Origin: Candidatus Palauibacter irciniicola
Lineage (GTDB): Bacteria; Gemmatimonadota; Gemmatimonadetes; Palauibacterales; Palauibacteraceae
DNA: 64,000 bases
Direction of reading: 5' to 3'
Assembly (NCBI GenBank): GCA_009836005.1
Contig: VXWG01000053.1
Span: forward strand, 45,722 to 109,721
How positions within the stretch are numbered: position 1 is the stretch's first letter; every line of letters starts with the position of its first letter. This document shows positions 18,571 through 19,591 of the stretch, one piece after another. The notes below the pieces were generated by a model. It did not search any database. It had not been told where the DNA came from and was given only the letters and a program-made list of their open reading frames with translations. The position numbers were made by a program, and so were the translations under genes.

Positions 18571-18599
18571 TTGACACTTTTCCCGTCCCTCTGTATCCT
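18571..18599 (+). promoter_or_regulatory. Sigma70-like promoter for the tRNA array: TTGACA, 17-nt spacer, TATCCT
   Basis: Perfect -35 hexamer and 17-nt spacer, with a -10 matching 4 of 6 positions, roughly 11 nt upstream of the first tRNA. Seen directly in the sequence. Confidence 0.45.
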
Positions 18600-18610
18600 G
18601 CGGGTCGCGC

Positions 18611-18684
18611 TGCGGGGTGGAGCAGTCTGGTAGCTCGTCGGGCTCATAACCCGAAGGTCGCAGGTTCGAATCCTGCCCCCGCTA
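18611..18684 (+). tRNA. tRNA-Met(CAT), initiator-type
   Basis: Cloverleaf with anticodon loop CTCATAA. Three consecutive G-C pairs in the anticodon stem (GGG/CCC) and a 1:72 mismatch, both hallmarks of initiator tRNA. Near-identical to E. coli tRNA-fMet. Confidence 0.8.
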
Positions 18685-18689
18685 TCCCT

Positions 18690-18728
18690 CGCCTCGCCTC
18701 GCAAAGCTGCGGGGCGAGGCGTTTTGCT
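18690..18728 (+). terminator. GC-rich hairpin (CGCCTCGCC...GGCGAGGCG) followed by TTTTG, just after tRNA-fMet
   Basis: A 9-bp perfect inverted repeat followed by a T-run. Seen directly in the sequence. Confidence 0.35.
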
Positions 18729-18759
18729 CTCCGATCCCTTTTGCGGGACGGGGATACGA

Positions 18760-18832
18760 TCCGGGGTAGCTCAGTGGCCAGAGCGGGTGGCTGTTAACCA
18801 CTAGGTCGTGGGTTCGAATCCCACCCCCGGAG
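18760..18832 (+). tRNA. tRNA-Asn(GTT)
   Basis: Cloverleaf with anticodon loop CTGTTAA and T-arm GGTTCGAATCC. Confidence 0.8.
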
Positions 18833-18865
18833 TCGGGCAGCAGGGCTCTTGCCACGGGCTGCCAT

Positions 18866-18938
18866 GGCTGGGTAGCTCAGGCGGTAGAGCACGGCGCTGA
18901 AAACGCCGGTGTCGGCGGTTCGACTCCGCCCCCAGCCA
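18866..18938 (+). tRNA. tRNA-Phe(GAA)
   Basis: Cloverleaf with anticodon loop CTGAAAA. Confidence 0.8.
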
Positions 18939-18979
18939 TTGCCACGGGCCGCCGACGGCCGGTTCGCGGGAAGCGGCAG

Positions 18980-19052
18980 AGGGGCGTAGCTCAATTGGTA
19001 GAGCACCGGTCTCCAAAACCGGCGGTTGGGGGTTCGAGTCCCTCCGCCCCTG
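18980..19052 (+). tRNA. tRNA-Trp(CCA)
   Basis: Near-identical to E. coli tRNA-Trp, with anticodon loop CTCCAAA. Confidence 0.8.
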
Positions 19053-19055
19053 TCG

Positions 19056-19127
19056 GCTCGCGTAGCTCAGGGGTAGAGCGCATCCTTGGTAAGGATGAGG
19101 TCGCGGGTTCAAATCCCGCCGCGAGCT
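19056..19127 (+). tRNA. tRNA-Thr(GGT)
   Basis: Cloverleaf with anticodon loop TTGGTAA. Confidence 0.8.
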
Positions 19128-19153
19128 TGGAGCAGCTTGGAACGGGATAGCGG

Positions 19154-19228
19154 GCGCCCGTAGCTCAGTTGGATCAGAGCACCGGCCTTCTAAGCCGGGG
19201 GTCCCAGGTTCGAGTCCTGGCGGGCGCG
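19154..19228 (+). tRNA. tRNA-Arg(TCT)
   Basis: Cloverleaf with anticodon loop CTTCTAA. Confidence 0.8.
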
Positions 19229-19255
19229 TGGCAAAAGGGGACGACAGCGGCACGA

Positions 19256-19327
19256 GCCCCCATCGTCCAACGGCTAGGACACCACTCTTTCAAGGTGGAG
19301 ATAGGGGTTCGATTCCCCTTGGGGGTA
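19256..19327 (+). tRNA. tRNA-Glu(TTC)
   Basis: Cloverleaf with anticodon loop CTTTCAA and a Glu-type D-arm GTCCAACGGCTAGGAC. Confidence 0.75.
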
Positions 19328-19389
19328 CTGGACGGAAGGCAGGACGGGACCGACGCCAGCCCGTCCGCGTGAAGCGACAGTCGAAGCGC

Positions 19390-19462
19390 GGGGCCGTAGC
19401 TCAGCTGGGAGAGCGCTGCAATGGCATTGCAGAGGTCAGGGGTTCGAATCCCCTCGGCTCCA
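19390..19462 (+). tRNA. tRNA-Ala(GGC)
   Basis: Cloverleaf with anticodon loop ATGGCAT and a G3:U70-compatible acceptor stem GGGGCCG/CGGCTCC. Confidence 0.8.
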
Positions 19463-19517
19463 TTTCGCGGCCCGCGGTTTGCCCGCCGAGGCCGCGAACG
19501 AGAGCTTTGAAGCTGTA

Positions 19518-19591
19518 CGCGCCGTTAGCTCAATTGGCAGAGCAACTGACTCTTAATCAGTAGGTTCGGGGTTCGACTCCCTGACGGCGCA
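19518..19591 (+). tRNA. tRNA-Lys(CTT)
   Basis: Cloverleaf with anticodon loop CTCTTAA. Confidence 0.8.

Follow-up and report, generated by a model that had tools for sequence, protein, structure and literature searches.

In the Escherichia coli operon metY-rimP-nusA-infB, the initiator tRNA gene leads, terminators t1 and t2 lie behind it together with RNase III sites, and the genes further downstream are supplied by read-through (PMC6511841). Where tRNA transcripts of E. coli end in Rho-independent terminators, these are removed in the course of maturation (PMC2241853, PMC4176162). Outside Firmicutes, the published view of tRNA arrays is a dichotomy between short native arrays and long, horizontally acquired ones. 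Native arrays outside Firmicutes and Tenericutes are usually short (PMC8421152), and the L-arrays (tRNA array units) known from cyanobacteria, Mycobacterium, phages and plasmids contain about 20 to 43 genes and are sporadic, redundant and linked to mobile elements (PMC8421152, PMC5966550). Here we describe a nine-gene tRNA array in a 64-kb stretch of the genome of Candidatus Palauibacter irciniicola (contig VXWG01000053.1, positions 45,722 to 109,721; this whole stretch, with a G+C content of about 70%, is denoted the window). The array opens with the initiator tRNA gene, and a terminator-like hairpin lies between this gene and the eight elongator tRNA genes. Judged by sequence comparison, the nine genes are a native, vertically inherited tRNA operon of Candidatus Palauibacter (marine Gemmatimonadota), and the conservation of the hairpin indicates that it is a functional element.

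A preliminary description of this DNA, made from the letters alone, had noted the one-strand array, its promoter, the hairpin and the spacer repeats, and every one of these observed elements was confirmed. The tRNA genes were called with ARAGORN and Rfam (gathering score, 29), which agree on all nine genes at 18611-19591 of the forward strand; with Rfam scores of 64.9-73.2 bits, none looks pseudogenic. Across the entire window, ARAGORN predicts 13 tRNA genes, all on the + strand and packed in 4.8 kb, and all of them score 51-73 bits with Rfam. Same-strand tRNA genes separated by short spacers (75, 33, 41, 3, 26, 27, 62 and 56 nt, in order) behind one promoter give the array the form of a native operon. 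The CCA end is not encoded by any of its tRNA genes. No two of the 13 tRNA genes in the window share an anticodon, and the set includes the sole possible anticodons for Asn, Phe and Trp, plus that of the initiator. As read from the sequence, the first gene carries the hallmarks of a bacterial initiator tRNA, namely, a CAU anticodon, an anticodon stem closed by three consecutive G-C pairs (G29-G31:C39-C41), A11-U24 and a U1xU72 mismatch in place of a Watson-Crick 1:72 pair; base 73 is A, and we take it to be nearly identical to E. coli tRNAfMet. The U1xU72 combination (18611, 18683) replaces the textbook C1xA72; U72 is also common in environmental initiators found with the ...CCCCCGCTA pattern, where it is opposite either C1 or U1.

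Upstream of the array lies a gene for gamma-glutamyltranspeptidase (GGT; 16719-18512), which was used to locate relatives. The close relatives of this protein (88-95% identity) all come from metagenome-assembled genomes and complete chromosomes of Candidatus Palauibacter or other Gemmatimonadota. This search yielded 20 related genomes (denoted here by L numbers) and an alignment of 19 arrays, to which the percentages of identity below refer. In 18 of the 20 genomes, the array follows this GGT gene with the gene order unchanged; 16 of these 18 possess all nine genes, and the terminal tRNA-Lys alone is missing in L012 and L015. In L007, the tRNA-fMet gene is present, but a stretch of N hides part of it. 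The array is absent at the GGT locus of L017 and L018, two more distant genomes that are uninformative because, besides GGT, they share no gene with the window. The tRNA genes are 99-100% identical across the 19 arrays, which indicates purifying selection.

The promoter claimed in the preliminary description, TTGACA-N17-TATCCT (18571-18599), is supported by a phylogenetic footprint: both hexamers are invariant, the 16 nt separating the -35 and -10 elements are 59% identical, and the upstream intergenic DNA is only 24% identical. This is the sole promoter-like match in 17500-24500, where shuffled sequences give an expectation of 0.3. In the 64 kb as a whole, TTGACA-N15-19-TANNNT is matched twice, one match being the array promoter, against 0.02 expected. 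The predicted transcription start lies approximately 4-6 nt 5' of tRNA-fMet.

The terminator-like hairpin that had been reported after the initiator gene (hairpin 1) held up equally well. A G+C-rich stem-loop of 14 bp (-29 kcal/mol) precedes a U-tract, TTTTG, which is the form of an intrinsic terminator; the sequence directly 3' of the stem is TTTTGCTCTC. Identity reaches 100% for one arm, 99.2% for the other and 98% for TTTTG, on par with the tRNA genes, whereas it ranges over 28-90% in the remaining spacers, which also show large indels (Asn-Phe, 59%; Phe-Trp, 90%; Thr-Arg, 52%; Glu-Ala, 58%; Ala-Lys, 28%). The fMet-Asn spacer is exactly 75 nt long in 17 of the 19 genomes. The transcript of tRNA-fMet plus its trailer is predicted to fold as a cloverleaf followed by the hairpin, at -61 kcal/mol. 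No covariation is detectable within the genus for hairpin 1 because its stem never varies.

Other identities of the spacer were considered. Hairpin 1 occurs once in the window and once per locus in the relatives, so it was rejected as a repeat element. The 75-nt spacer is of tRNA size, and past its first 13 nt no convincing similarity to tRNA-fMet was seen by eye; Rfam reports no tRNA there, and the spacer was rejected as a decayed tRNA gene. A search of the spacers of the window and of the relatives against Rfam at a permissive E-value returned nothing except tRNA.

Table 1. Features of the tRNA array, its surroundings and the second tRNA cluster (positions in the window).
Feature	Position	Strand	Basis and remarks
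-35 element GGTTGACAC (TTGACA 18571-18576)	18569..18577	+	Promoter scan; invariant in 19 genomes
-10 element TATCCT, followed by G+C-rich discriminator GCGGGTCGCGC	18594..18599	+	Promoter scan; invariant in 19 genomes
Initiator tRNA-fMet (CAT)	18611..18684	+	ARAGORN, Rfam; 100% identity in 19 genomes
Hairpin 1, CGCCUCGCCUCGCA-AAGC-UGCGGGGCGAGGCG	18690..18721	+	14 bp, 11 G-C, one U-G, 4-nt loop, -29.1 kcal/mol
T-tract TTTTG and conserved tail CTCTCCGA	18722..18734	+	TTTT invariant; TCTCCGA differs at one base in L003
Hairpin 2, weaker and variable, leader of tRNA-Asn	18728..18754	+	Predicted; 81% of cells paired; no covariation support
tRNA-Asn (GTT)	18760..18832	+	ARAGORN, Rfam
Direct repeat, copy 1, TTGCCACGGGCTGCC	18849..18863	+	3' half of Asn-Phe spacer hairpin
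tRNA-Phe (GAA)	18866..18938	+	ARAGORN, Rfam
Direct repeat, copy 2, TTGCCACGGGCCGCC	18939..18953	+	Opens Phe-Trp spacer
tRNA-Trp (CCA)	18980..19052	+	ARAGORN, Rfam
tRNA-Thr (GGT)	19056..19127	+	ARAGORN, Rfam
tRNA-Arg (TCT)	19154..19228	+	ARAGORN, Rfam
tRNA-Glu (TTC)	19256..19327	+	ARAGORN, Rfam
tRNA-Ala (GGC)	19390..19462	+	ARAGORN, Rfam
tRNA-Lys (CTT), last gene	19519..19591	+	ARAGORN, Rfam; insertion site in other species
C-rich, G-poor tract after array	19591..19645	+	Possible Rho-utilisation site
Promoter-like TAGACG-N17-TAGATT of second cluster	22864-22892	+	Conserved
Leader hairpin of second cluster, followed by TTTCGTGTCT	22903-22926	+	9 bp, about -20 kcal/mol; nearly invariant in genus
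Second tRNA cluster, Arg-CCG, Leu-CAG, Leu-GAG, Arg-ACG	tRNAs 22937-23374, unit 22864..23374	+	ARAGORN, Rfam

The reading that we favor, with a probability of roughly 55%, is that of one operon with a leaky intrinsic terminator that raises the output of the initiator over that of the elongators. The strong housekeeping-type promoter would start RNA synthesis a few nucleotides 5' of the initiator tRNA, and directly past tRNA-fMet, RNA polymerase would meet the stable, G+C-rich hairpin and its UUUUG. Some transcripts would stop at this point, yielding a short precursor that contains tRNA-fMet only; the remaining ones would read through into the eight elongator tRNA genes, which would lack a separate promoter. 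The hairpin likely acts as an attenuator, fixed or regulated, that sets the initiator above the co-transcribed elongators. RNase P would free the 5' ends of the tRNAs and, because no CCA is encoded, RNase Z-type cleavage followed by CCA addition is proposed for the 3' ends. The operon would end Rho-dependently in the C-rich tract that follows tRNA-Lys.

More distant relatives bear on this reading. A scan of metagenomes with the 3' end of the window initiator tRNA gene yielded 120 loci from many lineages, 111 of them usable. In 74 of the 111, a hairpin with a T-run follows tRNA-fMet and no tRNA gene lies within the next 200 nt; this is the ordinary monocistronic terminator arrangement of initiator genes, and hairpin 1 thus belongs to the same class of initiator-tRNA terminators. 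The unusual feature is the presence of eight to sixteen same-strand elongator tRNA genes behind an element of this type. Four loci (L032, L089, L124 and L130) encode a tRNA-fMet that is identical to that of the window in 73-74 of 74 positions, and in each of them this gene heads an array, of 6 to 17 tRNA genes (in three of these loci, the contig ends within the region). L032 is a more distant relative, given that its tRNA genes are 86-100% identical to those of the window and that its flanking genes differ. Its array, Met-Asn-Phe-Trp-Thr-Arg(TCT)-Glu-Ala-Lys-Arg(CCG), contains the nine genes of the window in the same order, with Arg(CCG) 38 nt further on, and closes with a canonical terminator containing seven T. 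The 17 tRNA genes of L124 open with Met-Phe-Trp-Glu-Asp-Ala-Leu(CAG)-Leu(GAG)-Arg(ACG), and the arrays of L089 and L130 open in the same way.

Directly 3' of tRNA-fMet, the four loci carry different G+C-rich hairpins, each with a T-run (TTTTCTTGC, TTTCCC, TTTCCC and TTTGGC in L032, L089, L124 and L130, respectively), which suggests that the position of the post-fMet element is conserved beyond the genus. In L032, the U-tract of the internal hairpin is broken (TTTTCTTGC), in contrast to the TTTTTTT of the terminator at the operon end; this fits a leaky internal element as opposed to a full stop at the end. Two features of these loci are worth recording in their own right. L124 (554-3124), L089 (654-1690) and L130 (13-738) are non-redundant arrays headed by fMet, with up to 17 tRNA genes in 2.6 kb. 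The 200-nt fMet-Phe spacer of L089 and L124 contains a conserved structured RNA without a match in Rfam and ends in a second strong hairpin with TTTTTTG, 4 nt before tRNA-Phe.

The prevalence of the monocistronic arrangement, found in most of the 111 loci, is also what would be expected if the array consisted of two units, a monocistronic tRNA-fMet gene with an efficient terminator and eight elongator genes transcribed from a non-consensus promoter within, or overlapping, the 33 nt that separate the T-tract from tRNA-Asn. In favor of this, the tail GCTCTCCGA and the leader GGGGTACGA are conserved, and the TAGACG-N17-TAGATT element of the second cluster shows that promoters with a weak consensus exist in this genome. 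However, only these 33 nt are free, and within them 18735-18750 is variable, with 11-18-nt insertions in L004 and L007. The only TANNNT hexamer seen in the Met-Asn spacer (by eye, not in a systematic scan of the 19 genomes) is TACGAT, or TATAAT in L016; it overlaps the first base of tRNA-Asn, so that the start site would fall inside the tRNA, and no -35-like block lies at the correct distance. The consensus scan of 17500-24500 gave no promoter besides that of the array. The other spacers cannot hold essential promoters because they are too short in some species, down to 3 nt for Asn-Phe, 6 nt for Thr-Arg, 18 nt for Glu-Ala and 6 nt for Ala-Lys. Taken together, we regard two separate units as unlikely. 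The attenuated read-through proposed in the preliminary description is the most economical reading because a second promoter was not found; the termination part of that proposal is a step that we infer.

The same comparison of spacers bears on the possibility that hairpin 1 is a processing or stability element, that is, an RNase III-type site, a 3' barrier for pre-tRNA-fMet or an insulator against mispairing. The hairpins downstream of metY in the E. coli metY-nusA-infB operon are cut by RNase III, which frees the tRNA (PMC6511841), and hairpins also form in other spacers of the array. The perfect inverted repeats that the preliminary description had listed as likely processing sites do exist, GGACGGG/CCCGTCC in the Glu-Ala spacer and TTCGCGGCC/GGCCGCGAA in the Ala-Lys spacer; however, several of these spacers are reduced to only 3-18 nt in one species or another, and the hairpins in them are therefore dispensable, in contrast to the post-fMet hairpin, which is never lost. 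A T-run follows that hairpin in every lineage examined, despite the difference of the hairpins themselves, and a pure processing hairpin would need none. Furthermore, 14 bp is short for a classical RNase III substrate. The 5' arm of hairpin 1 could pair with the 5' strand of tRNA-fMet (-19.3 kcal/mol), and its sequestration in the hairpin might aid the folding of the tRNA. On balance, a role confined to processing or stability seems rather improbable.

This potential pairing was also considered as an antiterminator and, in that capacity, is not supported: it compares unfavorably with the hairpin (-19.3 vs -29.6 kcal/mol), and the minimum-energy fold consists of the cloverleaf and the hairpin. 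The 3' arm of hairpin 1 has GCTGCGGGG in common with the 5' end of tRNA-fMet, a 9-nt identity that is statistically marginal (reached in 83 of 2000 shuffles).

Another candidate function is suggested by the conserved tail. The hairpin and the GCUCUCCGA tail could form a nut-like (boxB-boxA) site, where Nus factors would render RNA polymerase termination-resistant over the 1-kb untranslated array, a situation known from rRNA operons and some CRISPR arrays. The tail opens with UGCUCU (UGUUCU in L008, L013 and L020), similar to the boxA cores of E. coli and B. subtilis, and the fMet-Asn spacer of L032 contains GGTTGTTTGAAAAC, a much closer boxA-like sequence, followed by a GU-rich run, resembling the boxA and boxC of Gram-positive bacteria. 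Moreover, antitermination through boxA is documented for long non-coding CRISPR arrays (PMC7665894). However, GCTCTCCGATC (18726-18736) matches the published consensus GYTCTTTAANA at only 7 of 11 positions and was rejected as a boxA by that standard, although this consensus is gamma-proteobacterial and may not be that of the present lineage; its position 6 is a C, one of the two positions altered in the inactivating C4T/T6C double mutant (PMC5725501). The tail in the window is unlike the L032 motif, and L089, L124 and L130 have no such motif. In about 1 Mb searched, the degenerate motif also occurs at two other sites, so that the L032 match alone is not significant. We consider a nut-like site quite improbable for the window. 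The L032 sequence itself (7035-7065), in which GGTTGTTTGAAAAC is followed by GTGTTGTGTG, might represent Nus-factor antitermination of a tRNA array.

Several points count against a leaky terminator in a single operon. Termination and read-through at the hairpin are both steps that we infer from sequence. The U-tract is short (four U followed by G; five to six U within ten bases), and the hairpin may cause no termination at all. Hairpins followed by T are not enriched in the window: there are five perfect ones of at least 8 bp with a T-rich tail in the 64 kb, no more than in shuffles, and the two best of these head both tRNA operons. The elongators could also be served by a promoter of unrecognised type, for instance, one that may depend on an alternative sigma factor. 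The non-redundancy of the anticodons applies to the 13 tRNA genes of the window, and the downstream tRNA genes may have further copies elsewhere in the genome. Finally, the 26 invariant stem positions exceed the needs of structure alone or of a passive terminator; a simple terminator is expected to tolerate changes of G-C to A-U or G-U. The conservation of the hairpin could reflect a role at the DNA level or in protein binding.

This excess of conservation would be accommodated if hairpin 1 were a finely tuned attenuator, of which stronger and weaker variants could both be harmful, or if it were read by a protein, which could occur at the DNA or the RNA level. More broadly, hairpin 1 with its tail and the leader hairpin of the second cluster might both exert regulated attenuation or antitermination instead of leaking passively. 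If so, a switch read by a protein, by Nus factors or by the tRNA itself would adjust the initiator-to-elongator ratio, or the total output of the tRNA operons, to growth conditions in Gemmatimonadota, and this would explain why the stem positions are frozen across the genus. Such regulation appears doubtful; we leave some probability on it because similar hairpins head both tRNA operons.

Under the favored single-operon reading, transcription would also have to end after tRNA-Lys. No hairpin with a T-run was found at 19591..19645. The 50 nt from 19591 contain 28 C vs 8 G, the highest excess of C over G on the + strand of the 64 kb, about 3.5 standard deviations above the mean, and termination in this tract is probably Rho-dependent.

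The preliminary description had further put the array forward as a candidate for a tRNA island of mobile or duplicated origin, and this suggestion was not borne out. An island that is mobile, or that arose by recent duplication, and that supplies redundant tRNAs would be consistent with the high density of tRNA genes (13 in 4.8 kb) and with the mobile-element genes that adjoin the end of the array in L009, L011 and L015. Against this, the locus and the gene order are constant over 18 species-level genomes with nearly invariant tRNA genes, no anticodon is repeated in the window, and the distant relatives are collinear. Among plasmid and phage records, none covers at least 80% of the array, and the matches are limited to scattered single tRNA genes. 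The mobile-element genes are inserted beside or into tRNA-Lys, outside the array proper. This origin is thus largely refuted, and we consider it highly improbable.

The end of the array itself looks like an insertion hot spot. Downstream of it, L009 encodes an HTH and ImmA/IrrE protein (14590-15705), L011 a DDE transposase (14251-15789) and L015 a MobA/VirD2 relaxase (12862-14061); in L012 and L015, tRNA-Lys(CTT) is missing after tRNA-Ala.

The second tRNA cluster in the window has a leader organized in a similar manner, with TTTCGTGTCT 10 nt before its first tRNA gene; in the stem of its leader hairpin, a U-G pair is changed to U-A in one species pair. In Palauibacter, the two clusters are separated by 3.3-7 kb of variable genes after tRNA-Lys. 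They are probably pieces of one older array that was split, because the array of L032 continues from the same nine genes into Arg(CCG). In the window, the intervening segment (19592-22936; 3.3 kb) contains a 362-aa minus-strand open reading frame (ORF) without a Pfam match, one or two unassigned ORFs and a gene for a serine hydrolase of the beta-lactamase family; between species, this segment differs in its content and in its length, which runs from 3.3 to about 7 kb.

The motif TTGCCACGGGC, reported as shared by two spacers, is real and extends to a 15-nt direct repeat (93% identity) that flanks tRNA-Phe. Both copies of this repeat, TTGCCACGGGCYGCC, are present on the two sides of the gene in most species of the genus. 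The repeat may have been left behind when tRNA-Phe or its spacer joined the array; alternatively, the two copies may be hairpin sequences that converged.

The other TTGACA-N17-TATCCT sequence in the window lies at 50040-50125, among the palindromes CGTACGAAGATCTTCG and TTCGTACGAAGATATTCGTACA. Downstream of it, a small ORF starting at about 50126 resembles, by eye, a BlaI/MecI-type repressor; this element is probably an autoregulated operator-promoter.

Compared with the described systems, metY-nusA-infB appears to be the closest documented parallel. As in that operon, the initiator gene is promoter-proximal, a terminator-type hairpin comes next, the downstream genes would depend at least in part on read-through and the tRNA would be cut from a longer precursor. 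In E. coli, protein-coding genes and promoter P2 follow metY, whereas here eight elongator tRNA genes follow and a second promoter could not be detected. In sequence, the hairpins of the metY operon are unrelated to that of the array; the likeness is one of function, not of homology. If the hairpin is a leaky terminator, it provides a simple route by which one promoter and, presumably, one initiator gene could yield the initiator tRNA in excess of the elongators; E. coli meets the stoichiometry of the initiator with four gene copies.

Like the E. coli tRNA terminators, hairpin 1 is a stable hairpin on a pre-tRNA that would need removal; unlike them, it is internal, located after the first gene rather than at the operon end. 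The 3' external transcribed spacer of glyW-cysT-leuZ, a functional RNA, is another tRNA spacer conserved through a function of its own; sponge RNAs derived from such spacers are conserved in a single-stranded part, whereas in hairpin 1 the conservation is that of the stem itself. To our knowledge, an internal terminator-like hairpin has not been described for native tRNA operons. The locus is otherwise ordinary housekeeping genetics in a phylum that has been little studied, and its modestly novel part is the strongly conserved element, terminator-like in form, that separates the initiator from the elongators.

With L-arrays, the locus shares the high density of tRNA genes but none of the other features tested, namely, length, sporadic distribution and carriage by plasmids or phages: it comprises nine genes (13 with the cluster 3.3 kb away), occupies one locus across the genus and has no plasmid or phage counterpart. 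Like native A-arrays and the long operons of Bacillus subtilis (PMC8421152), it lies on one strand, has short spacers, is inherited vertically and encodes a housekeeping set; unlike the usually short native arrays outside Firmicutes and Tenericutes, the arrays of Palauibacter and its relatives comprise 9 to 17 non-redundant genes headed by fMet. Long, non-redundant, vertically inherited arrays headed by fMet in Gemmatimonadota and related uncultured lineages fall outside the published dichotomy.

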